From Cyanophora paradoxa CCMP329 (taxonomy: Eukaryota; Plantae; Glaucophyta), in assembly GCA_004431415.1 (NCBI GenBank), contig QPMI01000645.1, positions 1 to 64,000 of the forward strand: a stretch of 64,000 bases of DNA, written 5' to 3'. The notes beneath the pieces are model-generated. The model was given only the letters and a program-made list of their open reading frames with translations. It was not told the DNA's origin and made no database searches. The number at the start of each line of letters is the position of its first letter. The first letter of the stretch is position 1. Positions 4,180 to 50,944 of the stretch are shown piece after piece. The position numbers and the translations under genes were made by a program.

Positions 4180-4382
4180 ACGTTTTCATAGCTGGCCTTG
4201 CCTCCGACCAACTCCACTCCGCCCCCGTGGCACTATTTTATAAGCTAGTTTGCTGGGTCCCACGCCAGCTACAGGCTCCTCTCGACGCTCTCGGCCTCTA
4301 GATCTGAGTCTCTGAGTCTACTGAATACTTCACGAGCCTCTGGGCGCAACCTACGGGCGGGCGACGGGGGCGGGCGGGGCCC

Positions 4383-5617: not shown

Positions 5618-5648
<31 letters not shown>

Positions 5649-22638: not shown

Positions 22639-24669
22639 ATGTCCCGACACACGCGGCCCGCCCTGGCCCGCGTCTCCGACTTCTCGGCGATTGCGGCGGT
22701 CGCGGCGTCGCAGGAGATGCCCCAGCACCAGAAGTACGCTCGCCAGATCCAGCCGAAGGAGGAGCCGGTGCTGTTGAAGATCAACGAAGGCAACGTTTAC
22801 ACGTTCGGCTACCCGATGACGCACGCGAACGTCAAGCGGACGCTGGATCAGCTCGACAGCATCGTCAACCGTAAACCTTTCTTCGCGGGCAACCCGACCA
22901 CGCCAGACGAACGCGTCCGCGGCTCACTGATGCTCCGGGAGCTGGCGCAACTGTTTTCTCCAGAGGAGACGGACTTGTACCGCACCCGCCTGACCCAACA
23001 GGCGGACTTTGACAAGTACATCGCGCAAGCGGAGGCGAAACGGGCGGCACAGGAGGCGGTGGTGGAGGCCTTCAAGGCCGACCCCGGGAAGTCTCAGGAG
23101 CAGAAGGACCACGCGCAGGCGCAGCTCAACGCTCTCGAGGCGACGGTCCTCCAGGCGCGGGACATGATCCCGACGACAACTATCCGCTCGTACGAGGACT
23201 TCTGCACGTACGCACGCTCGCGCATCGACGAACGTGACAAACGGAACCTGGCGACGTGGGCGGACACGATGTACTACGGGATCCCGCCGCGGCTCCAGTT
23301 CGACTTGACGGTGGAGGCGCTCCAAGTCTCAGGCGTATCGATGACGCCAACGCTCATCGTACAGAAGCTGGAGACTCAGATTAACCTCCGGGCACGTGAG
23401 CACGACGACACTTGGGAGGTTTACCGGGACGATGCCGACCGCCGGCGTTCCAACTTCGACCTGTTGGTCGACAAGGTGATGCCCCAGCTGCGGGAACTCC
23501 AGCGGACGACCGAGAACGCCTTTCCGAACGACCCGGGCCTCGCGACGACGTCCTTCATCCAGCGGGCTCAAGATTGGTTGGAAAAGCCGGAGATCAGGCG
23601 CAAGTCGAAACAGGTCACCCTACTCGCAGGCGACACCCCGGCGAGCGTGGAGACAGGGGGCCCGGCGCGTGCCGTCCGCATGACACATGCCGAGGAGACG
23701 GAGGACGTCTTCGACAACCGCCGACAGGATCGCGAACTGACCGGCCTTGACACGACGCCGTACAAACGCCCCCGACACGAGACTGCTGGTTCACCGACGG
23801 GCACGCGAGAGTGGATGCCGAGCCCGACGGAGGGGTTGGCGGCACGGTTCGACAACAGCGCTAACATCGACATGCTGCGGGTGACGGAGTCGCTCCGAGC
23901 CCAGGTTCAGGAGCAGCATCAGCAGACGCAGGCTCAGCTTAACCAGCTACAGACCGCGATGGCCTCGCACATGCAGTCAGCGGCGCAGATGGCGCAGGCG
24001 GCGAACATCGCGGCGGTGCAGGCGACGCAGTTGTCGGCAGCGCAGCTGGCTGGCTCAGCCTTCCAGGCGGCGCCGTACAACCCGAACCGTCACGTCCCGC
24101 CGCCACGGCCATCACAGCCCCACGGCTTCTTCCAGCACGCTTCGCACTCGCCGGGTCAGAAGCCGAGCCCCCACGTACCGTGCACACTCGTACTTTCGCC
24201 CGACGGACGCGTCTGCGGCGTCATTCACTCCGTCCGGGCCAACAAGTACAAGCAGCTCATCGCATTCATTGACGTGGCCGACCCGAACCGCACGGAGCCG
24301 GTGACGAAGCAGCTGGGTCGGCCGCTGGTGCCGGAGTGCATGCTGGATTACTGCAGGCGTTGCGAGGCGATCTTCGGCACGGAGAACAGCAAGCACTGGC
24401 ATGACGACGTCGCAGTCTGCGCGATCCTGAGGGCCCTGCGCGCATTGGCGCCCCATCCCAGCCACCCCCAACTCCCCGTCGGCTGGTACCAGGCACTGCT
24501 GGACCGCGGCATCCTCCGGCCTTCACGGAAACCTCAGTTTGCGCCGTTCAACCAGCAGCTCGCCCTCCCGGCACCCCAGCCACAGCTCGCCCTTCCGGCG
24601 CCACCGCCCCAGCTGGCGCTCCCCGCTCCGCCGATGCAGCAACCGCCGCAGGCGACGCAGCAGCAGCGG
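22639..24669 (+). CDS. gag: ORF1 part 1: Gag N-terminal/capsid region (677 aa), interrupted at a codon boundary by insertion 1
   Basis: Long helical ORF just after the PBS, with a Cys/His cluster and QLALPAP x3. Joins in frame (CAG CGG|TGG CAG) to 36230, which leads to a CCHC knuckle. Confidence 0.8.
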
Positions 24670-24985
24670 TCGGGATTTGCGCTCTCAATGCGTAAATCGA
24701 GTTTTGCGCCGACGGAATGCGAACAAAGAAGACCGTAGCCGAGCGCCAGGCACGAAAGAGCTGAGCGACTCGCTAGCCGCGGAAGCGGCGCGAGGCGAGC
24801 ACGGGATTAGCAGCAGGCTGCTGCGAGCGCCCCTCAAGGGACTAGCTGAGCTAGCCGTTGGGCCGAGCCAGCGGGCTTGAAGCCGCCGAGCTCCGGGGGT
24901 ACGCTGATTCGGGGTTTCCCTTCACGCCCAGCTTCGCTCGCGGCCGCCCCAGGCCACGAAGCGACCAGCGGCGAAGCGAAATCGC
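24670..24985 (+). repeat. Split direct repeat A1 (~316 bp)
   Basis: Near-identical to 34710-35026 and to the reverse complements 52149-52465 and 61499-61815. Confidence 0.92.
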
Positions 24986-25614
24986 CACAGCCAGCACTGC
25001 AGTCACTCCTAAGCAGCCCTGTCGGACCGGCGGCCGCACTTCTCGGCCGTCCCTCCAATTGCACAGAGCTGACCAACTCTGCAGCACCACGGCTCGCCAT
25101 AGCTGCAGTGGAGCGCGATCCCGCGGCAGCAACTGCGCATGCCTCGATGGCTGGCCGGCGCAAACCCTGTTCCCAGCGATCCTCCCGGAATCGGCCTCGG
25201 GCCCCGATTCACGCTTGAATCTGGTTCCTTACTGCCGTGCCGGTACGTGGATTCACGTCCGGGCCCGCCCGCCACGCTCGCATTCCGCGCGCGCTGGCTA
25301 TCCCGGGGCCCACCGTCAGTCCGCGGCCGCCGGCTTGCCTATACACTCTATATAAGCGTGTATTGAGACCCGCCGCGCGATTCCTCCGGTTCCTGACCAA
25401 TTCCTGCACGCATGCTCCGGAGCTCCTCGGCGCTCGCACCGGACGTCGACACCGCCGCTGTGCCACGCCGGCGGAGCTCGCGCAGGACTGCCCCGGCCTG
25501 CTGGCGCGCGCGCTGCAGACCCACCGCGAAGTCGGGGCTTGGATCGTGCCTTACGCGTGATCCACCGACGGACGGTGCCCAGCCGCTCGCGCGGCTCGGG
25601 GAGGCGACGGAGTA

Positions 25615-26940
25615 CTAGTACGGCTCTCGCGTGCGCCTCGCGCTGTGGGACGGCCCGCGTGCGCCTCGCGCTGTGGTCCCTGTACTCGGAGTTCGGAGGC
25701 CGCGCGCGACTCTCGCTGTGGCCCGATCCCCCCGGCGGATTCCGGCCGCGACCGCGGCCGGCGAACTTCCACCAGGAGCACGGATCTCGCGAGCGCCTCG
25801 CTGTGAGATGGGCCCGCGTGCGTTCGTCGCTGTGGGCCCCCGTGCAAGGAGTTCCGGGGCCGCGTGCGCCCCGCTGTGGCCCCAGACCGCTTCAGCGGCA
25901 CCGGCCGCTCCCGCGGCCGGCGAACTCCCAACCTGGCCTTCGAATTCGACTCCCGCGTGCGCCTCGCGCTGCGGGACGGCCCGCGTGCGCCTCGCGCTGT
26001 GGGCCCCCTACTCGGAGTTCGGAGGCCGCGCGCGACTCTCGCTGCGGCCCGCTCCGCCCCCGGCGGACCCGGCCGCGCCCGCGGCCGGCGAACTTCGACC
26101 AGGAGCACGGGTCTCGCGAGCGCCTCGCTGTGAGATGGGCCCGCGAGCGTTCGTCGCCGTGGGCCCCCGTGCGCGGAGCTCCGGGCCGGGGCCGCGTGCG
26201 TCTCGCTGTGGCCCCAGAGCTTCACCCCGGAGTACGGCTCTCGCGTGCGCCTCGATCGCTGCGGGACAGCCCGCGAGCGTGCGCGCTGTGGGCCCTGTAC
26301 ATATATATATATATACTCGGAGTTCGGAGGCCGCGCGCGACTCTCGCTGTGGCCCGATCCGCCCCGGCGGATCCCGGCCGCACCCGCGGCCGGCGAGCTT
26401 CCACCAGGAGCACGGATCTCGCGAGCGCCTCGCTGTGAGATGGGCCCGCGAGCGTTCGTCGCTGTGGACCCCCGTGCGCGGAGCTCCGGGGCCGCGTGCG
26501 TCTCGCTGTGGCCCCAGATCTAGAGCTTCACCCCGGAGTACGGCTCTCGCGTGCGCCTCGCCCGCTGCGAGACGGCCCGCGAGCGTGCGCGCTGTGGGCC
26601 CTGTACTCGGGTTCGGAGGCCGCGCGCGACTCTCGCTAGCGCTGTGGCCCGATCCGCCCCGGCGGATTCCGGCCGCACCCGCGGCCGGCGAACTTCCACC
26701 AGGAGCACGGATCTCGCGAGCGCCTCGCTGTGAGATGGGCCCGCGAGCGTTCGTCGCTGTGGACCCCCGTGCGCGGAGTTCCGGGGCCGCGTGCGTCGCG
26801 CTGTGGCCCCAGAGCTTCACGCCGGAGTACGGACCTCGCGTGCGCCCCGCTGCGAGACGGCCCGCGAGCGTGCGCGCTGCGGGCCCCGGACTCGGAGTGC
26901 GTTACGCTGCGGACTATAGCTACGGCTCTCGCTGGCACGC
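25615..26940 (+). repeat. About 4 tandem ~300-bp repeats built from CTCGCGCTGTGG-like subrepeats
   Basis: CCAGGAGCACGG(A/G)TCTCGCGAGCGCCTCGCTGTGAGATGGGCCCGCG recurs at ~25772, 26099, 26404, 26699. Confidence 0.85.
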
Positions 26941-27529
26941 GCGCTGCGAGTATTAGTCGGCCCTCTGGCGCGTCTCGAGCTCGCTGCGGACTAGCCGCTA
27001 GCGCTAGCGCTGCTGGCGCGACCGCTACAGCCTCGCGATCGATCGCGATCGCAGAGTGTTTTGTTTGTTTTTGGTCAATTCTAGTCGATTCAAGGATTGA
27101 CTCGACCTTAAAACAAAAACAAAAACAAAAAACAAAAACAACGGACGTACCCGTTGTACCGGCCGGACTCCGGACTCCGGAGCCGCCGGACCCGCGGTCC
27201 CGCGCCGCGCGGTCTCACTGCCGCAGTGCCAGGCCGCTGACTCAGTGAGGCGGGCACTTCCGGGGGATCCGCTGCCGCAGTGCCGCCGCTGCGGCGCCGC
27301 ACGGCATGCGCAGTCTGCAGTGGCAGTACAGCCGCAGTGCCGCAGTGCGAGCTCGAGTCGGCCGGCGCCCGCAGCTGCAGCTGCCAGGCTGGCGCTTCCG
27401 CTACCGCAGTGCTGCCGCTGCCCCAGTGGCGCGTTACGCTGCGGACTACGGTCCCCGCTTGCGCTCTAGATTTCGCTGCGAGTCGGCCTGCTGGCGACCT
27501 TCCGCGCATCCGCGCCGCACCCTTGCGCA

Positions 27530-30500
27530 ACCCGGGCCCCCGCACCGCAGCTCGGCTCGCCGCCGCCGCCGGACCTGCCTGCGCAGGGCGGGCCGGCCGC
27601 TGGCCCGCCTGCGGCACTCCCCGGCTGGAGCCCAGGGCTCCACCTCCGTCCCGAGGTCCGAAAACGACCTCGCGCGGCCCCGCACCGCCGCGCCACCCGC
27701 CGCCGCCGCCTGACCTGCTTGCGCAGGGCGGGCCGGCCGCTGGCTCGCACGCAGCGCTCCCCGGCTGGAGCCCAGGGCTCCGCCTCCGCCCCGAGGTCCG
27801 TCACGACCTTGCGCGGCCCCCGCGCCGCCGCTCGACCCGCCGCCGCCGCCTGACCTGCTTACGCAGGGCGGGCCGGCCGCTGGCTCGCCTGCCGCGCTCT
27901 CCGGCTGGAGCCTTGGTCTCCACCTCCGCCCCGAGGTCCGTCACGGCCTCGCGCGGCCCCGTGCCGCCGCTCGACCCGCCACCGTGGCACCGCCGCCTGA
28001 CCTGCTTGCACAGGGCGGGCCGACCGCTGGCTCGCACGCAGCGCTCCCCGGCTGGAGCCCAGGGCTCCGCCTCCGCCCCGAGGTCCGTCACGACCTTGCG
28101 CGGCCCCCGCACCGCCGCGCCACCCGCCGCCGCCGCCTGACCTGCTTGCGCAGGGCGGGCCGACCGCTGGCTCGCCTGCGGCGCTCTCCGGCTGGAGCCC
28201 AGGGCTCCGCCTCCGCCCCGAGGTCCGTCACGGCCTCGCGCGGCCCCCGCACCGCCGCTCGACCCGCCGCCGCAGCCTGATCTGCTTGCGCAGGGCGGGC
28301 CGGCCGCTGGCTCGCCTGCCGCGCTCTCCGGCTGGAGCCCTTGGGCTCAACCTCCGCCCCGAGGCCCGTCACGGCCTCGCGCGGCCCCCGCACCGCCGCT
28401 CAACCCGCCACCGTGGCACCGCCGCCTGTCCTGCTTGCGCAGGGCGGGCCGACCGCTGGCTCGCCTGCGGCGCTCCCCGGCTGGAGCCCCGGGCCCCGCC
28501 CCGCCCCGAGGTCCGAAAACGACCTTGCGCGGCCCCACGCCCGCGCTCGACCGCCGCCGCCGCATAACCTGCTTGCGTAGGGCGGGCCGGCCGCTGGCTC
28601 GCCTACCGCGCTCTCCGGCGGGAGCCCAGGGCTCCACCTCCGCCCCGAGGTCCGTCACGGCCTCGCACGGCCCCGCGCCGCCGCTCGACCCGCCGCCGCC
28701 GCCTGACCTGCTTGCGCAGGGCGGGCCGGCCGCTGGCCCGCCTGCGGCGCTCTCCGGCTGGAGCCTTGGGCTTCACCTCCGCCCCGAGGTCCGTCACGGC
28801 CTCGCGCGGCCCCGCACCGCCGCTCGACTCGCCGCCGCCGCCGGACCTGCTTACGCAGGGCGGGCCGGCCGCTGGCTCGCATGCGGCGCTCTCGGGCTGG
28901 AGCCCTTGGGGCCCCACCTCCGCCCCGAGGTCCGTCACAGCCTCGCGCGGCCCCGCGCCGCCGCGCGACCTGCCGCCGCCGCCTGACCTGCTTGCGCAGG
29001 GCGGGCCGACCGCTGGCTCGCCTGCGACATTCGCCGGTTGGAGCCCTTGGGCCCCACCTCCACCCCGAGGTCTGAAGCGGCCTCGCGCGACCCCCGCGCC
29101 GCCGCTCGACACACCGCTGCCGCCTGACCTGCTTGCGCAGGGCAGGCCGGCCGCTGGCTCGCCTGCCGCGCTCTCCGGCTGGAGCCCAGGGCTCCACCTC
29201 CGCCCCGAGGTCCGTCACGGCCTCGCGCGGCCCCGCGCTGCCGCTCGACCCGCCGCCGCCGCATAACCTGCTTGCGCAGGGCGGGCCGACCGCTGGCTCG
29301 CATGCAGCCCTCCCCGGCCGGAGCCTTGGTCTCCACCGCCGCCCCGAGGTCCGTCACGGCCTAGCGCGGCCCCGCGCCGCCGCTCGACCCTCCGCCGCCG
29401 CATAACCTGCTTGCGCAGGGCGGGCCGACCGCTGGCTCGCCTGCGGCGCTCCCCGGCTGGAGCCCAGGGCTCCGCCTCCGCCCCGAGGTACGTCACGGCT
29501 TCGCGAGGCCCCGCGCTGCCGCTCGACACGCCGCCGCCGCCTGACCTGCTTGCGCAGGGCGGGCCGGCCGCTGGCTCGCACGCAGCACTCTCCGGCTGGA
29601 GCCCAGGGCTCCACCTCCGCCCCGAGGTCCGTCACGGCCTCGCGCGGCCCCGCGCTGCTGCTCGACCCGCCGCCACCGCATAACCTGCTTGCGCAGGGCG
29701 GGCCGACCGCCGTCTCGCCTGCGGTACTCTCCGGCTGGGGCCCAGGGCCCCGCCCCCGCCCCGAGGTCCGTCACGGCCTTGCGCGGCCCCCGTGCCGCCG
29801 CTCGACCCGCCGCCGCCGCCTGACCTGCTTGCGCAGGGCGGGCCGGCCGCTGGCTCGCACGCCGCGCTCTTCAGCTGGAGCCCAGGGCTCCACCGCTACC
29901 CCGAGGTCCGTCACGGCCTAGCGCGGCCCCGCGCTGCAGCTCGGCGTACCGCCACTGCCTGACCTGCCTGCACAGGGCGGGCCGGCCGCTGGCTCGCCTG
30001 CCGCGCTCTCCGGTTGGGGCCCAGAGCTCCACTTCCGCCCCGAGGTCCATCACGGCCTCGCGCAGCCCCGCGCTGCCGCTCGACCCGCCGCCGCCGCATC
30101 ACCTGCTGGCGCAGGGCGGGCTGGCCGCTGGCTCGCACGCAGCGCTCCCCGGCTGAGCCCAGGGCTCCACCTCCGCCCCGAGGTCCGTCTCGGCCCCGCG
30201 CGGCTTCGGGCTGCCGCTCGACCCACCGCCGCCGCATAACCTGCTGGCGCGGGGCTGGCCGGCCGCTGGCTCGCATGCAGCGCTCCCCGGCTGGAACCCA
30301 AGGCCCCACCTCCGCCCCGAGGTCCGTCACGGCCTCGCGCAGCCCCGCGCGGCCGCTCGACCCGCCGCCGCCGCGTAACCTGCTTGCGCAGGGCGGGCCG
30401 GCCGCTGGCTCGCACACAGCGCTCCCCGGCTGGAGCCCAGGGCTCCACCTCCGCCCCGAGGTCCATCACGGCCTCGTGCTGCCCCGCACTGCCGCTCGAC

Positions 30501-33500
30501 CAGCCGCCGCCGCAAAACCTGCTTGCGCAGGGCGGGCCGTCCGCTGGCTCGCATACAGCGCTCCCCGGCTGGAGCCCAGGGCCCCACTTCCGCCCCGAGG
30601 TCCGTCACGGCCTCGCGCGGCCCCGCGCTGCTGCTCGACATGCCACTGCCGCCTGACCTGCTTGCGCAGGGCGGGCCGGCCGCTGGCTCGCACGCAGCGC
30701 CCCCCGGCTGGAGCCCGGGGCTCTACCTCCGTCCCGAGGTCCGTCACGGCCTCGCGCGGCCCCGCGCTGCTACTCGACCCGCCGCCGCCACATAACCTGC
30801 CTGCGCAGGGCCGGCCGCTGGTGCGCATGCAGCGCTCCCGGCTGGAGCCCAGGGCTCCACCACCGCCCGAGGTCCGCCACGGCCTCGCGCTCCCCTGTGC
30901 TGCCGCTCGACACGCCGCCGCCGCATAACCTGCCCGCGCAGGGCGGGCCGGCCGCTGGCTCGTCCGCAGCGCCCCCCGGCTGGAGCTCAAGGCGCCACCG
31001 CCGCCCCGAGGTCCGTCACGGCCTCGCCCGACCCCGCGCTGCCGCTCGACCCGCCGCCGCCGCATACCCTGCTTGCGCAGGGCGGGCCGGCCGCTGGCTC
31101 GTATGCAGCGCTTCCCGGCTGGAGCCCAGGGCTCCACCTCCGCCCCGAGGTCCATCACGGCCTCGCGCAGCCCCGCGCTGCTGCTCGACCCGCCGCCGCC
31201 GCATAACCCGCTTGCGCAGGGCGGGCCGGCCGCTGGCTCGCATGCAGCGCTCCCCAACTGGAGTCCAGGGCTCCACCTCCGCCCAGAGGTCCGTCACGGC
31301 CTCGCGCGGCCCCGCGCTGCCGCTCGACCGCCGCCGCCGCATAACCTGCTTGCGCAGGGCGGGCCGGCCGCTGGCTCGCATGCAGCCCTCCCCGGCCGGA
31401 GCCTTGGTCTCCACCGCCGCCCCGAGGTCCGTCACGGCCTAGCGCGGCCCCGCGCTGCAGCTCGGCGTACCGCCACTGCCTGACCTGCCTGCACAGGGCG
31501 GGCCGGCCGCTGGCTCGCATACAGCGCTCCCCGGCTGGAGCCCAGGGCCCCACCTCCGCCCCGAGGTCCGTCACGGCCTCGCGCGGCCCCGTGCTGCCGC
31601 TCGACCCACCGCCGCCGCCTGGCCTGCTTGCGCAGGGCGGGCCGGCCGCTGGCTCGCCTGCCGCGCTCCCCGGCTGGAGCCCTTGGGCTCCACCTCCGCC
31701 CCGAGGTCCGTTCACGGCCTCATGCGGCCCTGCACCACCACTCGACCGCCGCCGCCGCATAACCTGCTTGCGCAGGACGGGACGGCCGCTGGCTCGCATA
31801 CAGCGCTCCCCGGCTGGAGCCCAGGGCTCCACCTCCGCCCGAGGTCCGAAAACGACCTCGCGCGGCCCCGCACCGCCGCGCCACCCGCCGCCGCCGCCTG
31901 ACCTGCTTGCGCAGGGCGGGCCGACCGCTGGCTCGCCTGCGGCGCTCTCCGGCTGGAGCCCAGGGCCCCGCCCCCGCCCCGAGGTCCGTCACGGCCTTGC
32001 GCGGCCCCGCGCCGCCGCTCGACCCGCCGCCGCCGCCTGACCTGCTTGCGCAGGGCGGGCCGGCCGCTGGCTCGCATGCCGCGCTCTCCAGCTGGAGCCC
32101 AGGGCTCCACCGCTACCCCGAGGTCCGTCACGGCCTCGCGCGGCCCGCGCTGCAGCTCGGCGTACCGCCACTGCCTGACCCGCTGGCGCAGGGCGGGCCG
32201 GCCGCTGGCTCGTCCGCCGCGCTCTCCGGCTGGAGCCCAAGGCTCCACCGCCGCCCGAAGTCCTTGACGGCCTCGCACGGCCCCACTCCACCACCCGGCT
32301 TGCCGCCGCCGCCTGCCCTACGGGTGCAGGGCGGGCCGGCCGCTGGCCGCCCACCGCGCTCCTGCTGGAGCTCAAGGCTCCACCACCTCCCCGAGGTCTG
32401 CAGCGACCTCGCGCGGCCCGGCGCCGCCGCCCAGCTCGCTGCCTCCGCCTGATTGGCTGGCACAGGGCGGGCCGGCCCTAGCCCGCCCGCGGCCGTCGGA
32501 CGCTTCCTGGCTGGAGCTCAAGGCTCCGCCACCGCCCCAAGGGCGGGCCGGCTGGTGGACCGCGCGCAGCGCCTCCTGCGGTAGCTAAAAGCTCCGCCGC
32601 CGCCCGAAGGTCCGTAGCGGCCTTGCGCGGCCCCGCGCGGCCGCTCGACCGCTACCGCCGTCGGACCTACTCGCGAAGGGGCAGGCCGGTCGCTGGCTCG
32701 CCAGCAGCGCTCTCCTGCTGGAGCTCAAGCCTCCACCACCGCCCGAGGTCTGCAGCGACCTCGCACGGCCCGCACTGCCGCTCGGCTCGCCGCCGCCGCC
32801 TCGCCTGCTTGCGCAGGGCGGGCCGGCCTCTGGCTCGCCCGCGTCGCCCCCTGCTGGAGCTCAAGGCTCCTTCGCGGCCCCGCGGTCCGTCACGGCCTCG
32901 CGCGGCCCCGCGCCGCCGCTCGACCCGCCGCCTCCGCCCGACCTGCTGGCGCAGGGCGGGCCGGCCCCTGGCTCGCCCGCAAGGCCCCCTGGCTGAAGCT
33001 CCAGGCCCCGCCACTACACCGAGGGCTACTGCGACCTCGCGTGGCCCCGCGCCGCCGCTCGGCTCGCCGCCGCCGCCTGACCTGCTTGCGCAGGGCGGGC
33101 CCGGCCAGCCGCTGGCTCGCCCGCAGCGCCTCATACTGGAACTCAAAGCTCCGCCGCCGCCCAAGGTCCGTGGCGACCTCGCGCGGCCCCATGCCACAGC
33201 TCGGCTCGCCACCACCGCCTGACCTGCGTACGCAAGGCGGGCCGGCCTCTAGCTCGCCCGCGACGCTTCCTGGCTGGAGCTCAAGGCTCCACCCCGCCCC
33301 GAGGTCTGCAGCGACCTCGCGCGGCCCCGCGCCGCCGCTCGACCCGCCGCCGCCGCATAACCTGCTTGCGCAGGGCGGGCCGGCCTCTGGCTCGCCAGCC
33401 GCGCTCTCCTGCTGGAGCTCATGGCCCCATCACCGCCCCGGGGTCCGTCACGGCCTCGCGCGGCCCCGCGCTGCCGCCGCTTCGCCTGCTGGCGCAGGGT

Positions 33501-33730
33501 GGGCTGACCGCTGGCTCGCCCACGGTGCTGTCCCACGGGCGCTCCAGGCCCTGAGGCCCCGCGACTGCTCCCGCGGCCTTCTGCGGCCCCCACACCTCCA
33601 CGCGGCGCGCTTCCGCCGCCTAACCTGCTTGCACAGGGCAGGACGGTGGTGGGCTCACTTTCGGTGCTCACCGGCTGGGATGGTTTTAGATTCCGCCGCG
33701 GCCCGAGGTCCGTAACGGCCTCGCGCGACT
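27530..33730 (+). repeat. 139-bp GC-rich tandem satellite, roughly 44 diverged units
   Basis: Unit CCTGCTTGCGCAGGGCGGGCCGGCCGCTGGCTCGC...GGCTGGAGCCCAGGGCTCCACCTCCGCCCCGAGGTCCGTCACGGCCTCGCGCGGCCCC; repeat-derived ORF starts recur at multiples of 139 bp (29133, 29411, 29550). Confidence 0.93.
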
Positions 33731-34155
33731 TCACGCCGACGCGCAGTGCGACCGCCTTGCCCGCCCTCCACCCGTAGCGCGCCCCTGGCCCGCACCGCCC
33801 AGCATGACTTGTCGGCGGCGGGGATCTGGCGGCGCAACTATCAAGCGCCGCCCCGGTTCGTCGACTGTCCCATAGGGTACGACGAGAACCCCCCAGCCTT
33901 CTGTGCCGGCTCGTTCCCTCGGGCTTCTTGGCCCGCCCCGGCCCCATGTTGTTGTCCGAATTCACGCTCTCTGCCCGTCCCTCCTACAGCGCAGTGCGCT
34001 GGGGGATAGGGGCTCAGCGTCCGAGACACGTTGGGGTAGCGGGGGAGGAGGAAAGAGAGGGGGGGGGGCAGGAGGAGGGTGGATCAACCCTCACCCTCTT
34101 GATCACTTTTGTCCTTATGTATGCTATTCTGGCTGGCTGTGACCTGACTCTTGTT

Positions 34156-34709
34156 TGGTAGGGGGTACTGCATTCGTGCTGCGTTCGCTACGCTCACCCC
34201 CGCGGCCTCCGGCGGCGGTACCCGGCTTCGGATCCCGAACCCGGAAGAAACCGCGTACCCCTCCCCGGGGTACGCCGTTCGCCCCAACCGGCCCCACAAG
34301 GCGCGGCCCGAGCCGAACGCGTACCCCGGAGAGGGGTACGGCGTCAGAGCGGCCCCGATCAAGTGTACCCCGAGCGGGGTACCCCGATCGGCCCCGCGAC
34401 GGCCCGAGCGGAGTACCCCGAGCGGGGTACACCGTCTCGACCCGCAACGGCCCTCCCCGGGGTACAGGCGCCTAGCACGCTTACCCCGGAGAGTTCTTGT
34501 TCCGGAACTCGCAAGGGCGAGGCCGGAATGGCATACGGCGATCCGCCCTGGTCGATCGCCAACGTATTATGATACGTGGTTCCCGGGAAAGCAGCCTTGA
34601 GCTGCCGTACCTCAGGGCCCAACCCGATGCGCTATCCCGTGCATCTAGCTAAGTAGTGTCAGGCGTAAGATAGCTAGGTCTTCTGCATTCGAATGAAGCG
34701 AGGCGTAAA
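34156..34709 (+). repeat. Split direct repeat B1 (~555 bp)
   Basis: Near-identical to 35673-36229 and to the reverse complements 50945-51502 and 52466-53023. Confidence 0.92.
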
Positions 34710-35026
34710 TCGGGATTTGCGCTCTCAATGCGTAAATCGAGTTTTGCGCCGACGGAATGCGAACAAAGAAGACCGTAGCCGAGCGCCAGGCACGAAAGAG
34801 CTGAGCGACTCGCTAGCCGCGGAAGCGGCGCGAGGCGAGCACGGGATTAGCAGCAGGCTGCTGCGAGCGCCCCTCAAGGGACTAGCTGAGCTAGCCGTTG
34901 GGCCGAGCCAGCGGGCTTGAAGCCGCCGAGCTCCGGGGGGTACGCTGATTCGGGGTTTCCCTTCACGCCCAGCTTCGCTCGCGGCCGCCCCAGGCCACGA
35001 AGCGACCAGCGGCGAAGCGAAATCGC
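34710..35026 (+). repeat. Split direct repeat A2, abutting B1 (internal copy of the end-to-start junction)
   Basis: ...GAGGCGTAAA|TCGGGATTTGC... is the element 3' terminus fused directly to its 5' terminus. Confidence 0.92.
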
Positions 35027-35672
35027 TCCCGCCACCTCCCGCGATTTTTCCTTCCGGGGCGCCGAACCTCGCCACCCAGCGAGCCCCGGCGCCGCGAAAA
35101 GTTCGCGCAAAAAGGCAATGCATACGGCGACCAGCGCCAGCGTTCGCCGAGGGTATTATAATACGTGGTTCCTTGCCGTCTCCTGTGCACACGGTTCCGG
35201 ATGTTACTCCCGCTCGGTGCCGGCCACCAGCGCGGACGTGGTCGTGCACAGCTGATCCGTGGTAATTTACAATGGTTCCGTCGAAGATTCGGGCACGAAC
35301 CGCGCAGACTCGGTGTACCGGTCGTCATTCGTGTTTCCACGCGCGTCCGCTGGGCCCACTTGTGCCGGGCCGGGGTCCAGCGCGCCCCCAAGAAACAGTC
35401 GCGCGGCTTCGTGGAGAATCTCGAGTTTTCCCCGCTGGGTTTTACCCTGTTTTCCTCTGGACCCGTGGGTGCCGAGCCGGGGTCCAGCGCGCATGACCGT
35501 TACGCGGTTTTCCCGCGGTAACTTGCTGGTTTTCGAGTCTGCCGCCCCGGCGCGGGGGGAGACTTCGCGCATGATTCGGAGTCCTGTTGGTTTTTGATGA
35601 GCCTCGGTTGTCGTACGTTGTACGACTCCTTGGTCTCATGGTCGTCTGCGGACGACGGGCACGCTACGCGTG

Positions 35673-36229
35673 TGGTAGGGGGTACTGCATTCGTGCTGCG
35701 TTCGCTACGCTCACCCCCGCGGCCTCCGGCGGCGGTACCCGGCTTCGGATCCCCGAACCCGGAAGAAACCGCGTACCCCTCCCCGGGGTACGCCGTTCGC
35801 CCCAACCGGCCCCACAAGGCGCGGCCCGAGGCCGAACGCGTACCCCGGAGAGGGGTACGGCGTCAGAGCGGCCCCGATCAAGTGTACCCCGAGCGGGGTA
35901 CCCCGATCGGCCCCGCGACGGCCCCGAGCGGAGTACCCCGAGCGGGGTACACCGTCTCGACCCGCAACGGCCCTCCCCGGGGTACAGGCGCCTAGCACGC
36001 TTACCCCGGAGAGTTCTTGTTCCGGAACTCGCAAGGGCGAGGCCGGAATGGCATACGGCGATCCGCCCTGGTCGATCGCCAACGTATTATGATACGTGGT
36101 TCCCGGGAAAGCAGCCTTGAGCTGCCGTACCTCAGGGCCCAACCCGATGCGCTATCCCGTGCATCTAGCTAAGTAGTGTCAGGCGTAAGATAGCTAGGTC
36201 TTCTGCATTCGAATGAAGCGAGGCGTAAA
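35673..36229 (+). repeat. Split direct repeat B2 (3' terminus of copy 1)
   Basis: Direct repeat of B1, ending GGCGTAAA. Confidence 0.92.
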
Positions 36230-39200
36230 TGGCAGCAGCACGCAGGCGGCGCGAACCGGAACACCGGGCGGCCGGGGGGCGGCGGAGGCCGGCGGGACGA
36301 CCCGCGAGGCCCACTCGTCTGTTACAACTGCGGCAAGGAGGGTCATGTGGCTGCGCGCTGCCCCGACCCTCCGCGGGAGCGGCGTGGAGGAGGCGACTAC
36401 CGCGCGGTGCAGCCCCCGGCGCAGGCGAATTACGCGGCGACGGGCGCGAACGCGACTCCGACGGCACCGGCCCAGCCGCCGATCTCGCAGGAGCAGGTCA
36501 ACTCGATGCTACAGGTGGTCCAGGCGGCACTCCTGAACAAGGCGGGCACCAACGCGGTCGCCGCCAACACTCCGGAGGCCGAGGCCCTCTGTAGGGAGGT
36601 CATCCGACAGTACCTCCAACGCATGGCCGAGGAGAAGCTTACGGGATCAGAACGCCGGCGGAGGAGGCGAGCAGCACGCGAAGCGGTGGACGCGACGGCT
36701 GCGGGTGCGGAGCAGCTGGAACTGCGGACGGCCAGTTGGGAAGACGACGGACGGATGGAGAGGCAGTCGGACGGCACGCCGTCATCCAACTGGGCTACAC
36801 CGGCGGGCTCGTCGGGATCAGCATCGCCCATGTCGACGGGCACACCGCGCGGACGGGAGCCGATGGTAACGGACGGCGCTGCGGCCGGGCTCGCCCAAAC
36901 CGCACAGCCGGACGGGACCTGTGACGACGCGACGGACCCACTGCACGGACCTGAGACGGCAACAGTGAACGGCGCTGCAGTCGGGCTCGCCCAAACTGCA
37001 CAGCCGGACACGACGCCCGTCAACACGGCGGCGACGGAGACGGGACCGACCGACCCCGCGTCAGAGCTCGCTCGAAACGCGCAGTCAGAGTCGGCCCCAC
37101 TCTCTACGTTCTTCACTTCCGTGCTGGAACGGGCCCGACGAAGCTTCGCGGCCCTGCACATCCGCCTCCAAGGCGAGGCAGTCATGCCGGAGGAGGAGCG
37201 CACCGCTGCTCGGCAGGAGCGGGAAGAGGACGACCCGGGGTCGGGGTCGGAGGACGCGGAGAACGACAGCCTCGACGGCGGGCCACTGCGCCTCCGAGGA
37301 GGAGGAGGCAGCAATACGCCAACCCCGGACGGAGGCGACGACGCCTTCAACTCGGAGGCAGTCCAAGACGTTATCGACCCGATGCCGCCGCTCACCGCAC
37401 TGCCGGCACCCGTGCCGCTAGGCCCGGGCCAGATCGAGCTCTTGGGCGTGGCGGTCGACCCGGCGGAGATGGCCGCGGCGGAAGAGCAGGACGACCCGCC
37501 TCCGCTCTGGCGCTCCGACGACGAGGCGAGAGGCGACCCGGACTCCGACGACGACCTCTATCCACCGACGGGGACGTACCCGAACGGCTACGACAGCGAT
37601 TGCAGCTCGACCGCATACTACCCGACTACGATGCTTGACATCGAACTCGCCGACGCACGAGCAGCAGCGGCTCGGCGGGGCGTCACAGTGGAGCAGCACC
37701 TGGCGGAGCAGCTTGCGGAGGCTGAGGCGGCACTTGACCGCCCCCAGAGCCCCAGCGACGTCTGGGCGGGCGTGGCCGCGAGGATGTCGCCGGGCAGCGA
37801 GCGCGCCCCGGGCAGCATCAGTACGTACGTCGACGAGTGGCTCCTGGGGATCGCAATGACAACGGAGGCGAACCCGGCGGCGGACACAGCTACACCGGCG
37901 ACACCCGCGGCTGCGACGGTCCTCCGGGCACGGGCCCGCCTGCTGGCAGGACGAGCGATCGCCGACAGAGCCGCACGCCACCGCACGGACGCTCGCGACA
38001 CCCAACGCGAGCTGCAGGGCGACGCGACGGCGCGCGACGACGTTGCGGATCAAGTACACGACGGCCTCATGCAACCAGCCGTGCTCCGCCTGATTGCTCA
38101 GGAGGCCGCGAGGAGGGTGATTGGGGCGCGGGCGGTCGATCGCGGGACCACGTACCAGGCCGCCCAGCAGACGATCAGAGGCGACGTCACGGCGGAACGC
38201 GAGCTGACAGAGGCTGTCCTGGCGGACCTGCGGCAGTGGCGTCAGACAGGCGCAGCGGCGGAAGCGACGGCAGCGGTCACGGAGGCCTGCAACACCCCCA
38301 TGTTGTACACGGTCTACGACACCACGTCTGGCTTCCTCAACCCGCCCCAGCAGACGCCTACGCTCATCGCCCCTCCCGCGCGCCTTCTTCACCCGGGAGT
38401 CATGCCCTTTGGTTCGAGCTCGGGGACGAGCACAGGGCTGTACGACCGAACGGTGGAGGACGTGCTCGCGATGCAATTAGCGGGGCTGCTGGATGCTGAC
38501 GGACAACCCACGGCAACTGCCGACGCTGACCGTGACCAGACGCGGGAGACGGACGCGGCCGAAGTGCCGTATACACCGACGTTCGCAGAGGGGAGGACAC
38601 GCGTCGAGATCATCGCGAACCTGCTGCGAGCGGTCGAGAACAGACTGGAGACCATGCCGCCCCCGCCGCCTCTCCCGCACATGCCCCCGATTCACTACGT
38701 CGACGACGAGGCGATTATCCAGGGTCAGGCTGAGACCATCGTGGACGCCATCATTGCTACGCTCCGACACCGCGTGGATGACCCGCGCACGGAGCTCCGG
38801 CGACGCTTGGGGGATGAGCTCTCGAGGTGGACGGGGGGGCCGTATATCGTTTACCACAATCGGGGGCAGATTGCACGGCTCCATGCAGCTTTCCTACGGG
38901 CACTCGATCGCATCGCCATCATGCAGCAGTGCCGCCCACCACCACCGCCGCGCCCGCGGCACGAATCCGACGACGACGAGGATGACCTCAACGGCTTCGG
39001 ACCCTCCGACGCGGCTACCAAGTCGAACGCGGGACGGACGGCACAAACCACAGCAACGACTGCGAGCGGCTCGGGGAGACGCCGGCCGTCCCCGCTGGAG
39101 GAGGTGGACCCGCTGGAGACTCTCCTGGAAGTCTTCTACCAAGCCAAGCTAGCAGTGCACGCAACTACGGATGCGCCAGACACCGCGGGCACAGTACTGC

Positions 39201-42200
39201 GTCTTCGCGGAGGAGCGGGCAAGCGGACCCGGTCGACCGCAGGCATCAGCTCAGGCGAGGACGACCCGCCACGGCAGCGCCCAAACCGCCCACCGACGCC
39301 AGCCGTGACGGACCCCGCGCTCGGGCTCGCCCAAAGCGCGCAGGCCGTGATGACGACGGCGTCAGCAGAGGCCGCAGAGTTGCAGCGCGTGGAGAAGTTG
39401 GCACCCGCTGGCGAGCAGTGCCTGATGACGGCGGAGGCCGCGGAGACGCAGCGCGCGGAGGGCGCGGAAACGCCACCTGCAACGGACCCCACGTTCGGGC
39501 TCGCCCAAAGCGTGCAGGCCGTGACGGCGGCGTCAGCAACGGAGGAGGACGCGAAGGCGTTGGCACCCGCTGGCGAGCGGTGCCCGACGGCGGCAGAGGC
39601 CGCGGAGACGCAGCGCGCGGAGGGCGCGGAAACGCCACCTGCAACGGACCCCACGTTCGGGCTCGCCCAAAGCGTGCAGGCCGTGACGGCGGCGTCAGCA
39701 ACGGAGGAGGACGCGAAGGCGTTGGCACCCGCTGGCGAGCGGTGCCCGACGGCGGCAGAGGCCGCGGAGACGCAGCGCGCGGAGGGCGCGGAAACGCCGC
39801 CTGCAACGGACCCCACGCTCGGGCTCGCCCAAAGCGTGCAGGCCGTGACGGCGGCGTCAGCAATGGAGGAGGACGCGAAGGCGTTGGCACCCGCTGGCGA
39901 GCGGTGCCCGACGGCGGCAGAGGCCGCGGAGACGCAGCGCGCGGAGGGCGCGGAAACGCCACCTGCAACGGACCCCACGTTCGGGCTCGCCCAAAGCGTG
40001 CAGGCCGTGACGGCGGCGTCAGCAACGGAGGAGGACGCGAAGGCGTTTCAGTTGGCACCCGCTGGCGAGCGGTGCCCGACGGCGGCAGAGGCCGCGGAGA
40101 CGCAGCGCGCGGAGGGCGCGGAAACGCCGCCTGCAACGGACCCCACGCTCGGGCTCGCCCAAAGCGTGCAGGCCGTGACGGCGGCGTCAGCAATGGAGGA
40201 GGACGCGAAGGCGTTGGCACCCGCTGGCGAGCGGTGCCCGACGGCGGCAGAGGCCGCGGAGACGCAGCGCGCGGAGGGCGCGGAAACGCCACCTGCAACG
40301 GACCCCACGTTCGGGCTCGCCCAAAGCGTGCAGGCCGTGACGGCGGCGTCAGCAACGGAGGAGGACGCGAAGGCGTTGGCACCCGTTGGCGAGCGGTGCC
40401 CGACGGCGGCAGAGGCCGCAGAGACGCAGCGCGCGGAGGGCGCAGAAACGCCACCTGCAACGGACCCCACGCTCGGGCTCGCCCAAAGCGTGCAGGCCGT
40501 GACGACGGAGGCGACGGCAGCGGAGCCAGGCGGCGACGTCGTAACAACACCACCACCGGACGCCCCACAAGAGCACACGTACTCTCCGAACTCGCCTTCC
40601 CATCCGGATCACCCCATGAACATCACGAGGATGGAGATCGACTCGCCGTCAGAGCACACGCATGACGAGGCGGAGCACACGTGGGAGGCGAATTATCGAC
40701 GACGGCTGAAGACGGGCCAGACGATTAACAACGACACTCGATACCGTGCACTCGCAGAGTACACGATGGACAAGTACGGAGTCCCGCGGTCGTCAAACGT
40801 GAGACGCCAGGTGGCGGACGGATTGATGCGCAATATGGACCCCCCACCCCGAACGGCACCAGCCCACCAGGCCCTACACCCGGGCAACGCGGAACTGATT
40901 GCGGAACTCACACGGGCGGACGCGGGCGAACTGCTCAACGCCCATGCAGGCCCGATCGACGAGCGGTGGCTTGGGCTGTGGGGGAGGTTGACATCAGACG
41001 GACGTTGGCGACTCCTCCAGTGGACGGCAATGGAACGCAACGTCGACACGGCTACGCTGGCCGCGCAAGAACACCGAGAACGAGCGGCGAAGTTCGCCGA
41101 GATCCAGGCGGCGGGCGGGGGCCGGCGGATGCAGGAAGTCGAGCGGGGCGAGGAGCCACGCGCGTGGGAGACAACCGTGGCGGCGGACGTCGCGCGGGCT
41201 TACGCGGTCCACCGGGGCATCGACAAGGAGATGTCTACCGCCGGGATCGGCGACGGCAACGTGGAAGAAGCCCTGAGGTCGCTGAGCTCTCGTGAGGCCG
41301 GCTACTACAGGGTCGTCAGTCGGGCGGTCTTCACGATGCTCGGAACCAACACGGTCTGGAACCCGCAGTGGATCACGGGAGGACGCCCGGGGGGCCCCCC
41401 GCCGACCCACTTACCACGATCCATGAGACCAAAGGAGCGGTCGATGATGGACTACGAGTTCACGAACCCATCGCAAGAGGAGGGCGTTCGCGAGCGGCAG
41501 ATCTGGCAACACCTGGCGCCGCTGATGGAGGCCGTCAAGCCGTGGGTTGGACTCACGGATACAGCCCGCTTCGGAGCACTCGCTGCGGAGGCTGACAAGC
41601 GACGTGTCTCGGTGGAACAGCTGCCGGACATACTGATCGAGGAGTGGGGACAGCTCTGCGACCTCGCGCGGCAAGCAGGCTACTTGCGGTGGGAGCGCGT
41701 TGCAACGGGCGCGGATAACCCCAGGCACCAGCACGTCGCGGTGGCCGACATTTTCGTCCAGACACTCGACCTTCTCGGCCGCCTGGACCACGAGCGGGAC
41801 CGGTACCACCCGGGCCAACCCTGGTTCAAGGTGTTCCGAGCGCTGGCGGCCGAAGAAGCGGGTTATGGGAAGGGGAGGCGGGCGCGAGAGCTGTACGAGC
41901 AACTCGCAACCCTACGGGACTCCGTCACAGGACGTGCTGAGACGGAGACGCTACTGAAGATGTACCGCGGGGAAAACGGCTGGGACGGCTGGCAGTACCG
42001 GCTGCCGCACGCAACGGCGTCGGTAGAATTCTCAACGGTCTACACGTCGCGCGACCTGAACAAGACGCGAACGGGGGAGAGGCCGTACATCGACAGGGAC
42101 CTGACCGAGCCATTCCGGATGGATACCGAACTCCCCAGGCGTGACTTCAGCATCTGGATGGCGCGCCAATCGCGTTATGTACGTGACGGGAAGAGCCTTC

Positions 42201-45200
42201 CCTCGCCACCGCTGAGCCGACACTGGGGAGAGGGCGCGTACGGCACAGACAAGGAGAGTCTCGTGGTCACGACGCAAGTGGAAGTGCAGGCAGCACTACT
42301 ACACGCCAAGCTTCCACAGTTCAGGCGGGCAATGGCAGCACTGATCATGACGGGGTTCTCGGGCTTCGTCGACCCCTTTGTCGAAGCGCCGGAGCGGCGT
42401 TGCAGCGGGGAGATCAGCGACGCGGCATGGCGCGACTCGGCCAGGCAGGGCCTTTCGTGCCTCGGACACGATAGCCTTCTCGCACTGTTCGGCGTCGAGA
42501 TGCGCGAGATCGGACACTTCACCAACGCAGTCGACAGCATCATGCCCACGCTCGTCGCGTTGGGTATCGAGCTTGGCAGACGGCTGAATGGCGAGCGTCA
42601 GCGACGCGGGCGAGGCGCCCCCATCCAGTTCGACACGGGGCTTCTCGAAAAGGCGCTAACGTCCCAAGCAATGGATGAGGCAGTCGAGGAAGCTACCCGT
42701 TACGTCATGCTAGCGGCAGCCACGATGGAGACGCCGCCAGCACTGGAGGAGTGCCCCGACGCCGAGGTCGCTTTGCGACTCCGTACGCACGCGATAACGT
42801 GCGGACTGTCACTCTTCCTCGCGGCGCGGGACCCGAGGGCGGAAGGAGGTCTCCAGTGCCCTCGCACACTGTGGGACTCGAAGGGCAGCGAGGTCGAGTG
42901 GGTGGACGTGCTCAACACGAACCGAGCGTTCGACTACGACCTCCCGGACGGGTTCCTGGTGACGTTCCTCGTGGAGATCTGCGAGAGCTTCTTGACGGTG
43001 GCGCGGTATGCACGCACAATCGACGGGCGTACACCGACGATCGCTTCGGTGGCTGCAGCGGAGGACAACGAGAGTAGGGCCCTCTTCACGCGCACCAGGC
43101 CTAGCTTGCGCACGGGCCGCACAAACGTGAACCTCGAGGCACTCTCCTGGAGCACTGCCTTCCGTACGGCACTCGGCTTCACGGGCAAAGCGCACCTGTT
43201 CTGCGACCTCATGGAGGAGTTGCTCTACGTGAATGCGATGGCGGTGGATGTACCGTTCAGATTGGTCGACGGCGACTTACGGGACGGAGCACGACGGGAG
43301 GCGATTGCCACCTACCTGCGCCAACGGCGGGTGATCCCCGTACACTACAGATTCGTGTCTCGCGAGAGCAAGACGCGCGCGATTGTGCACCTCACGTACT
43401 CGGCGGGGCTGGCACGGCTGCGTCGGGATCACAACGTCATCCGTGACAGCATTGCCATGCTCGCCATCGAACTGCACAACGACCGGGAGGAGGGGAACAA
43501 GCCGAACGCAGCGTTCAGTTGGGCTCCGCAGCCGCCCCAGGCCCCCATGCACCTGGCAATTCACGATCCCGATGTCACGTGGTACGCGGCGCCTTTTCAG
43601 TCGACACCGTTCATCCTTGGCCGGCGGGGGGAGAATCTCCGGCTAGTTCCCATCGCAGTGGCGATGACGTCGCTCAGGACCCTCTTGCTCAGAACGGTCA
43701 CGGAGCGGCTGCGCGAGTCCATGACAACGGCGATTGCGACAGCGACGGGCGAGTCGGACCCGCACAGCGCGAAGGCGCAGCAGGCTGTACGAGTACTGAC
43801 TTCCTGGATCATGGAGATGGCGGCGTCGCCCTTCAAGGCGTACACGGTCGCAATGATTGTGGGCCACCCAATGCAATTCTTCACTCTCCTGCGCACGCTC
43901 CATCGCGAGCAGCTGCAGCACGGCAACGAGGGACTGCAGCGTTACCCGCTGACTCCGAACCGGCAACTCCCCGTCGTCATGCAAGGGCGGCGGCAGGACT
44001 GGGAACGGAACATCCCGCTACACCACTTGCCCGTACGCTCGGCAAAACCCGGCGCCTGGCCGTACTACGCGGGCGCCAACGCTTTCGGTCTCCCAACGGT
44101 GATGGAGGGGGAGATGAACGAGACGGAACGCCGAGTTATCGTGCACTTTGCGCTACGTCCGGCCCCGAACGTTGCAGGACCAAGCGGCGGCTCTGCGACA
44201 ACGGTGGCGACGCTATCGCCCCCTCAGGACGCTCGGCCTGAGAGCGCGGCAGTCGCCCTCGTGGCGAGCGGCGACCCGGCCCGGATTAACACGAGCCGGC
44301 GACCTGCGAAGCCCCACGAGGTGACGGCCGTCGACATGCTACTCCATGGAGGGCCACTGGCACAGGCCGTCGGCAAGCAACTGCAGCACGGGGACGGCGC
44401 GTTGACGGCAGACGACAGAGCAATCCAGCAGGACCTGTTCGTCCCGACACCTCTCCCACGCCACGACGTCGACACGGATCCCTTGCTCCTTCGGGATCAG
44501 CCGGCGAGCGGCTACTTCCACTACACCACGTGGAGACGCCTGCACGAGCGGGCCGAACCGGTTGACGGTGCCATCGCCGCGGCGTTCGAGTCACAACGGG
44601 CACGGGCACCTCGCATCCAAGGGCGGCTCTTCCAGCAGGCGATGGGCCAGCTGCTCGGACAGCCAACAGGCCCGCGGGCCAGACCGGGGGAGGAGCGCGC
44701 TGGAGCGCCAAGCGCCCGGCCCCTGGCCGAGGCCCCGCAACGCCGGCGGAGGCGCCAGCAGCCACAACCGGAGGACCAGCCCTGGGAGCGTTACGATGCA
44801 CTGGGACGGGTGTGCATCAACGGGGACGAGCTCACGCTCTTCACGGACGTCAAGGCGGGGACAACGGCGCTGCAGAGCCGGTTCGAGTACAGGGCTCCGA
44901 CGCGGACGGCGCTGGCCTGGCAGCATCCGAGTCATCCCACCTCCGCCGAGGAGCTGACGACGGACCACGGATCCGTGTTCGACCCGGCCCGCGACGACGA
45001 CATTCATGCAACGATGGTGTTCGAGGTGCAGTTGCCAACGACAACGGAGCGACACTGGCTCGGGACGGACGACGGGACGGGCCACGACCTTCTTCTCGGG
45101 TTCTCGCATGTCCCCGACCCGCATCGGGAACTGACAGCGGTCGCCCACCTGGCTTCCTGCTTTGCCACGACAGCCTTGCGCGTCCACTTGGCATTCCCCT

Positions 45201-49327: not shown

Positions 49328-50944
49328 TACCTCGGGGCGACGAGACGCCCCTACTCCCTCCTTCCTTCACTGTCCCCACCCAACTCTGGTCACACGCCTC
49401 CCGAACCCCCCGCCACCTCCACGTTCATATCTGTAACCCTACACGCAAACCGCTCCACCTTTCGGAGGGTACGATCATCGGCTACGCTGAATTCGGGCAC
49501 TGGGAAGAGGGCGAGTTCACGCCAGACTCCACGCCCTTCCCCTCGGGCCCGTCCTCCACGTGGACCGACGATCAGCGACGGGCGGCTGCACGGCGAATCC
49601 TGCAGGCGGCGCGACCTGTGGTGGTCCGTCGGCGCGTCGGCCCGAAGCACTTCCGCCGAGTCGCCCGGCAACGGTGGCCAGAATGTTTCAAGCGCCCGGA
49701 CACCAACAGCGGTGAACAGGAGCAAACACCGCTTACGGCCGACGAGGTCCAGGAACTCGACGCCGCCCTCGACAAATGGTCCACGCGACTCGAGCGACAG
49801 ACGGGCGACGGGGCAGTTGAAGCCCGCGCTCACATCGCCGACTTGCGCTGTCTTGTACTCCGATGGCGAAGGGACAACCTGGACCCCGGGGGGCCGCAGT
49901 CGCCTCCAGCAGCAGTACGGCAAGCGACGATGAGTACGAATGCGATGGATCCGCCGACCTCCGACAAGCCTCCAGACGAGAAGTCACCCGAGGAGGCCTG
50001 GAAGGAGGCGCTCGAGGCGCTGCGAGCCGCCTCGCGGGCAGACGCGTTACCGGAGACGACCTCGTTCCAGGCGGAGCGGCTGACGGCCTTGCTCAGCCGC
50101 AACAAGCGTTCCTTCACCAACCGCCTGGACCCCCGGGATCTGCTCAAATTCGAGCACTCGCTACAGCTCCAGCCCGGAGTCGACAAGGTCAACCTGCCGC
50201 TGTACACTCACCCGCGTCGGATGTCACCGACAGCGGAAGAGGCTACACGGAAGGAGATCGAGAAGTTGCTGCGCGACGACTTGATCGAGCCCTCCCAGGC
50301 TGGCTATGGCTCCCCGGTGGTGCTGGCGCCGAAGAAGGACGGCACGCTACGGTTCTGCATCGACTATCGCAAACTGAATCTGCTGACGGAGCGCGACGTC
50401 TTCCCGCTCCCCCGCATCGACGACCAGCTCGAACGGCTGCGCAAGGCGCGCGTCTTTTCAACCTGTGATGCGACGTCAGGATTCTGGCAGCTTCCGCTCT
50501 CGGAGGAGTCGCGCAAGTACACGACGTTCATCGTCCCTTGGGGCATGTACCAGTGGAAAGTCACTCCATTCGGGATCACGAACGGGCCGTCGGCGTTCTG
50601 CAGGGCTATCTCGTCGATCATGGGACCGCTTCTCTCGACCTGCGTGGTCGCGTACGTCGATGACCTGACCATCTTCTCCTCCACGGTCGACCAGCACCTC
50701 ATCGACCTGGAGGCCTTCTTCGCCGCCGTGGAACGCGGGAACCTCAAACTGAAGCCGAGCAAGTGCCGCTTCATGGTCCGCGAAATCGAGCTCCTGGGAC
50801 ACCGCGTCTCCGGAGAAGGCGTACGGAAGGACAAGAAGAAGATGGACATGATCGCCAAGTGGCCCGAACCGTCAACCCCGGAGAACCTCCACTCTTTCGT
50901 CGGCCTCACGGGTTACTACCGACGCTTCGTCCGCAACTACGCCC
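49141..50944 (+). CDS. pol: pol part 1: spacer plus Ty3/gypsy reverse transcriptase, interrupted by insertion 2
   Basis: GSPVVLAPKKDGTLRFCIDYRKLN...FPLPRIDD...D ATSGFWQ...PFGITNGPS...AYVDDL (YVDD at 50653)...SFVGLTGYYRRFVRNYA. Confidence 0.95.

Follow-up and report, generated by a model that had tools for sequence, protein, structure and literature searches.

The window, i.e., the whole 64,000-bp stretch of Cyanophora paradoxa DNA analyzed here, contains two near-identical copies of a non-coding element, E1 and E2, both inserted in one giant Ty3/Gypsy element. E1 interrupts the Gypsy ORF1 just upstream of the zinc knuckle, and E2 interrupts pol. The two copies have opposite orientations within this single Gypsy copy, forming an 11-kb inverted repeat around 14.7 kb of Gypsy sequence. 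The coordinates are collected in the table below.

Features of the window discussed in the text (positions are those of the 64,000-bp stretch)
Feature	Positions	Strand	Description
Ty3/Gypsy ORF1, target of E1	22639–49327	+	ORF of the giant element, with zinc knuckle and weak protease match; ~5,040 codons; split at 24669/36230
Element copy E1	24670–36229	+	11,560 bp; non-coding, split direct repeats; inserted in Gypsy ORF1 without target duplication
A1 repeat of E1	24670–24985	+	Opens with spacer 1, followed by right arm, loop and site 2
Body of E1	24986–34155	+	Non-coding; ~295-bp repeat block at 25617–26898; 139-bp satellite array at 27538–33477
B1 repeat of E1	34156–34709	+	Last bases are the left arm GCGTAAA; palindrome-rich block at ~34250–34470
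Predicted junction hairpin	34673–34779	+	37 Watson–Crick and 2 G·T pairs; ~110 nt
Site 1	34703–34722	+	GCGTAAA-TCGGGA-TTTGCGC; left arm 34703–34709, spacer 34710–34715, right arm 34716–34722
A2 repeat of E1	34710–35026	+	
Apical loop of predicted hairpin	34723–34729	+	7 nt; sequence and length (6 nt) differ in related sequence
Site 2	34730–34749	+	GCGTAAA-TCGAGT-TTTGCGC; predicted to pair with site 1 when the strand folds
C of E1	35027–35672	+	Unique segment separating A2 from B2
B2 repeat of E1	35673–36229	+	Right end of E1
Gypsy pol, target of E2	49087–64000	+	RT and RNase H, with integrase seen in intact copy P0002; interrupted at 50944/61816
Element copy E2	50945–61815	−	10,871 bp, ~5 satellite units fewer; inserted in Gypsy pol, in the RT/RNase H interval
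Site pair of E2	52426–52472	−	Boundary 52466^52465

The Gypsy ORF1 (22639–24669 plus 36230–49327, + strand) encodes a Gag zinc knuckle near residue 710 and a weak aspartyl-protease match at its C-terminus. The ~4,000 residues between them have no Pfam match and contain seven copies of a 54-aa repeat (39308–40508). The whole Gypsy element exceeds 30 kb, and many related pol gene models of the same style occur in the proteome. The rest of the window holds a 0.9-kb duplicated segment (816–1703 and 4367–5294, 89% identity) adjoining an ORF piece at 4383–5963 (− strand) that matches Rho_RNA_bind and S1-CSD-like domains, a leucine-rich-repeat ORF piece at 2310–2777 (+ strand), and three tandem units of ~1.16 kb at 12440–15454 with 74–87% identity.

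Self-comparison of the window gives the order of segments in the element as A1-body-B1-A2-C-B2, with A of ~316 bp and B of ~555 bp. The four A copies and four B copies show no substitutions, differing only by 0–7 single-base gaps, mostly in homopolymers; the insertions are therefore recent. As in TOC1 and kangaroo, A2 and B2 are separated by a unique segment and the interior holds tandem repeats; TOC1 is likewise non-autonomous. The split direct repeats, in which A1 equals A2 and B1 equals B2, follow the A1-body-B1A2-B2 layout with identical repeats that defines PAT, TOC, kangaroo, and Ngaro (PMC4157794, PMC9210276, and PMC8547959, each in part). These elements share the lack of a target duplication, and in the present element, too, no target-site duplication is found and the ends are equal to the internal B|A junction, as expected of the DIRS order.

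Autonomous members of the order carry Gag, RT/RH, and tyrosine recombinase (YR) ORFs. In this element, none of the 46 ORFs scanned in the non-satellite parts (24670–27800 and 32618–36120) has a Pfam match to any of these or to HUH families. With no such match in the ORFs scanned, membership in the DIRS order holds only as a non-autonomous element. Since it is without such ORFs, the element fits PAT and Ngaro alike, classes told apart by an MT domain that PAT has and Ngaro lacks. Pattern scans of metagenome contigs and viral contigs gave no match to the element, and an Rfam search over 24600–36300 returned five matches, all far under the gathering scores. The element is a non-autonomous, gene-less, new family of known DIRS-order layout.

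Three further features of the element are as follows. The 139-bp satellite occupies 27538–33477 in E1 (~42 units) and 53699–58954 in E2 (~37 units), offering a route for satellite dispersal. A block of hairpins in B, at 34250–34470 and again at 35770–35990, is built of repeated GTACCCC/GGGGTAC words and is the strongest fold in the element, with z to −9.8; the 34250–34470 block has no Rfam family. A 53-bp motif with a TATA-like core, possibly a promoter element, is found in B (34531–34583) and C (35120–35172) at 80% identity, and its fold is not significant.

The insertion of E2 is exact. P0002, a EukProt gene model, is an intact copy of the pol that E2 splits and is identical to it over the RT query. 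E2 splits one Arg codon, which is a single Arg in P0002, so no base was gained or lost. The reading frame of ORF1 is maintained across E1; a search among proteins of 1186–3385 aa gave no intact ORF1 spanning the E1 site. The targets, CAGCGG^TGGCAG and CGATGC^GGGCGT on the element strand, have only 2 of 6 bases in common with the spacer in each case, bearing out the low homology described in the initial annotation, and the target arms match the element arms at 0–3 of 7 bases. In contrast to DIRS1-like elements (PMC3266345, in part), there is no fixed 3-bp word common to junction and target.

The B|A junction carries two 7-6-7 inverted-arm sites whose starts are 27 bp apart, present just as the initial annotation had them, and its second pair is likewise found on the minus strand in E2. 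The annotation also placed the element boundary at the spacer edge, and the six window junctions all fall at 34709^34710 or its equivalent. In both insertions the spacer forms the first bases of the element and the left arm its last bases. An isolated 7-6-7 inverted site with ≤1 mismatch is nothing unusual: there are 306 in the window, and B1A2C (34153–35669) has 11 vs. 3.6 in shuffles. A pair of sites with identical arms within 60 bp, however, occurs at only these two places in 64 kb and in none of 300 dinucleotide shuffles of B1A2C (34153–35669). The two spacers have four of six bases in common. Site 1 by itself is also able to pair inside its own spacer, giving an 8-bp stem, and for that reason the 6-bp spacer is defined by site 2 and the related sequence described below. 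In contrast to PAT, TOC, and Ngaro, the junction of this element has two full quasi-palindromic sites.

On either strand, the cut made by a tyrosine recombinase falls at the 5′ edge of the spacer. The boundary fits this polarity on the + strand only, as a minus-strand YR cut would fall at 34715/6 or 34742/3. Of the initial annotation, the spacer-edge cut, the slight spacer–target homology, and the reading of the junction as an attachment site are upheld, and the junction is very probably the tyrosine-recombinase attachment site of a DIRS-order element. The recombinase is likely supplied in trans. Because no autonomous partner or recombinase was found, YR involvement is argued from the layout.

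Other copies were sought in public sequencing runs. Of 24 listed runs, 14 contain half or more of the sampled words, no RNA run being among those listed, and four were compared over 34500–35100; contigs may lose rare branches, and contig depth is not taken as copy number. Among the 24 of 31 loose ends shown, there are four more distinct long flanks, two left (34709 and 34710) and two right (34710 and 34712), none matching the window, which gives no indication of targeting to this Gypsy. All four are compatible with 34709^34710, given 0–3 ambiguous matching bases. Thus, eight of eight ends, four in the window and four distinct ones in contigs, fit one boundary, and none uses the second cut, in a small sample from which contigs may have dropped rare branches. 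The four left flanks have no common motif. The right flanks have a weak T-n-G likeness to the spacer (G at position 3 in 4/4), which is confounded by the detection in contigs and is not a finding.

The shared B contig stops at 34709 in runs X1, X3, and X9. In run X1, contigs covering 34683–34738, 34710–34748, and 34719–35026 are unbroken across 34715/6 and 34736/7. A copy with its right end at 34715 or 34736, or with its first base at 34716 or 34737, would be expected to break these contigs, provided the graph keeps it. Less favorable to the folded-site model proposed below, about one third of the A-start depth in X1 departs at 34749, where arm 4 ends, from the sequence of the window. A subfamily present in all four runs has contigs that leave A near 34749–34759 and rejoin it near 35006.

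Folding of the 47-nt pair as DNA gives not two small palindromes but a pairing of site 1 with site 2, with the 7-nt linker as the loop between them. Below this, 18 pairs between the B end (34673–34690) and the A start (34755–34779) make a lower stem. The predicted folded site has two identical 7-bp arms, with the same G·T pair in each, flanking a partly unpaired 6-nt spacer of four pairs and two 2-nt bulges. The single arm mismatch of the initial annotation amounts to a G·T pair in the + strand. In the minus strand, the G·T pairs of the arms turn into A·C and drop out. In the + strand, the arm pairs between site 1 and site 2 have probabilities of 0.72–1.0 in all five contexts, up to 873 nt, against ≤0.04 for the local palindromes. 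The 34660–34800 segment folds with z of −3.1 (+) and −2.5 (−) as DNA, and of −5.6 (+) and −2.2 (−) as RNA. The fold is specific to the junction, with z of −4.0 at B1|A2 vs. +0.4, −0.8, 0.0, and +0.8 at the four integrated ends. Unfavorable to the fold is a minor variant, G34754T, in which a weak pair is disrupted. Nor is folding in itself remarkable in this element, since B contains stronger folds (z to −9.8), and any quasi-palindrome copied in tandem will necessarily fold back. To summarize, pairing of the two sites with one another is predicted for the + strand, in a hairpin that would exist only at the junction, and the pairing into a two-arm site with strand asymmetry, as in known folded sites, is indicated by computed folds and by one covarying pair, as follows.

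In all four runs, related sequence shows up as a pair of overlapping loose ends, one (TCGGGGTTTGCGCAATTAA) preceding 34730 and the other (AATTAAGCGTAAACCGA) following 34722; they probably come from one related family. This family begins at the same boundary and keeps both inner arms, with the loop replaced by a different 6-nt loop. It has G for A34715 together with C for T34737, the only changes in ten visible spacer positions, and in the fold these two positions pair with each other. We estimate the chance of a covarying pair like this at ~0.03–0.09, for one event read from the overlap of two short contig ends. Quasi-palindrome correction could create the pair without selection. The initial annotation had looked to relatives for kept arms and varying spacers, and in this relative both inner arms are kept and the spacer is changed.

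We suggest, with a probability of about 0.47, that the active site is the folded + strand, as in CTXφ and attC, and that a single strand is exchanged. The proposed steps are as follows. The RT of the partner would rebuild the B|A junction on a circle. Site 1 would then pair with site 2 on the + strand, remaking one symmetric site atop the 18-bp lower stem. The recombinase would cut at 34709^34710, leaving a 3′-phosphotyrosine on the arm and a 5′-OH on the spacer, and one strand would be exchanged with a chromosomal duplex at a site of little homology. Replication would resolve the resulting junction, as it does for CTXφ attP(+) and integron attC. A single exchange from a folded strand would thus produce a constant boundary without duplication, and in duplex DNA the internal B1|A2 copy would be masked.

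The model has precedents in bacteria. In CTXφ, the attP1 and attP2 site pairs fold back in the (+) strand into one site, which undergoes a single strand exchange (PMC3442271, in part). The attP(+) of this Vibrio cholerae phage, recombined by XerCD, has the same two-site fold-back, poor overlap homology, and an active form that is masked after integration, features that are predicted for the present junction (PMC3442271, in part). In contrast to CTXφ, the element is a eukaryotic retroelement without a fixed target such as dif, and its recombinase is presumably element-encoded. The integron attC site, the substrate of IntI, shows the same strand asymmetry and the same imperfect hairpin, with a central spacer left unpaired and a terminal loop that varies (PMC5027507, in part). 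However, the arms of the element are identical and conserved in sequence, the asymmetry comes from G·T pairs and not from extrahelical arm bases, and the site has no conserved AAC triplet in common with its targets. Slightly more tentatively, we propose that split-direct-repeat elements of the DIRS order may in general integrate from a folded single strand, with the junction, made up of two quasi-palindromic sites in tandem, as the eukaryotic counterpart of CTXφ attP(+) and an element-encoded YR carrying out one exchange with near-arbitrary DNA.

The strand that folds with the correct polarity is the + strand, which is the sense strand by the A1-to-B1 convention. DIRS-1 makes single-stranded cDNA that is able to integrate and is antisense, and its authors retain a double-stranded circle model (PMC7192593, in part). 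With the cDNA antisense, strand displacement or cruciform extrusion would have to supply the + strand DNA. The usable strand being the presumed sense strand, and the RNA fold being good, two rival models stay alive.

In the first, which we consider unlikely, site 1 is recombined as a duplex on a double-stranded circle and site 2 is accessory; either both strands are exchanged, as in Tn916, or one exchange is followed by replication. The geometry is textbook, a 7-6-7 site cut at the 5′ edge of its spacer, and a double-stranded circle is what the standard DIRS model presupposes (PMC7192593 and PMC3266345, each in part). Tn916 integrase, moreover, needs no homology and makes heteroduplexes (PMC5812530, in part), and the coupling sequences of Tn916 resemble the spacer here in having no target homology and in being cut at the edge. 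The two forms of the model fare differently. Exchange of both strands without homology gives heteroduplex ends, so replication should yield two boundary types about equally. The other boundary, predicted for about half of the copies, is used by 0 of 8 ends (4–6 independent insertions, p ~0.02–0.06), and the X1 contigs run unbroken past it. In Tn916, either spacer can be inherited at either end, whereas here the spacer is fixed in all copies and always on the same side, none of the eight ends in this small sample being of the second type, and there is no excision-derived coupling sequence. The Tn916-like integration put forward in the initial annotation, which calls for the spacer at the other end in some copies, is accordingly disfavored by this small set of ends. 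The one-exchange variant also yields a single boundary type. But with site 2 as an accessory site, as the annotation had it, the complementarity of the two sites and their spacers, the change of an A–T to a G–C pair, and the lower stem are left unexplained, and an active site would remain inside every chromosomal copy.

In the second rival, a little less likely again, the hairpin acts in the sense RNA, i.e., in template jumping, RNase H protection, or packaging during rebuilding of the junction, with duplex site 1 as the place of recombination. The RNA fold is the most significant one (z −5.6 on + vs. −2.2 on minus), both wobbles are G·U on the presumed sense strand, and the covariation fits RNA as well as it fits DNA. 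Indeed, the G·T/G·U asymmetry fits an RNA hairpin equally well. However, an RNA stem does not require two identical arms placed symmetrically about 6 nt and a boundary lying precisely where arm and spacer meet, and the single boundary type is unexplained.

Nicking of the hairpin by an HUH nuclease, of rolling-circle or IS200/IS605-like type, would make the element a DNA element, and this alternative of the initial annotation is very improbable. It would suit the lack of a target duplication, the single exact boundary, the terminal hairpin, and the 5′ end starting with TC; hairpins and the absence of duplication are general for HUH elements (PMC10288648, in part). Against it, split direct repeats of 316 and 555 bp are a hallmark of the DIRS order (PMC4157794, in part), and Replitrons have short terminal direct repeats and Helitrons insert in AT or TT (PMC10288648, in part). 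The targets here are G^T and C^G, and the four left flanks are unrelated, with no motif in common; thus, neither a fixed target di- or tetranucleotide nor short or absent terminal repeats are seen. Furthermore, Rep proteins nick in the hairpin loop, and the cut here falls in the stem. That site 2 is a neutral 27-bp tandem duplication with the fold as a by-product is, if anything, even less credible: any duplicated quasi-palindrome folds back and the spacers are alike at 4/6 bases, but the related sequence retains both arms around a wholly replaced loop, and the lower stem lies outside the duplication.

For integration in the DIRS order there is a largely untested model that presupposes a double-stranded circle together with a short word in common (PMC7192593, in part). 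No folded-site model appears in the available parts of PMC3266345, PMC3783388, and PMC9977147, and no folded single-strand site for DIRS-order elements was found in the literature searched, most subscription papers lying outside that search; junction hairpins may have been described before, in the reviews by Poulter, Goodwin, and Butler. According to a 2016 paper, no tyrosine recombinases other than IntI and XerC/D are known to act on single-stranded substrates (PMC5027507, in part).

The junction offers an unusually clean layout and a substrate of 47–110 nt with sharp predictions. If the folded-strand model is false, the element is an ordinary non-autonomous DIRS-order family. If it is true, exact ends without homology would be explained, as would the inertness of the internal junction in every chromosomal copy. 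The element would then be a eukaryotic example of a YR system acting on a single strand, and its 11-kb cargo would integrate by a route that needs little homology and leaves no duplication.
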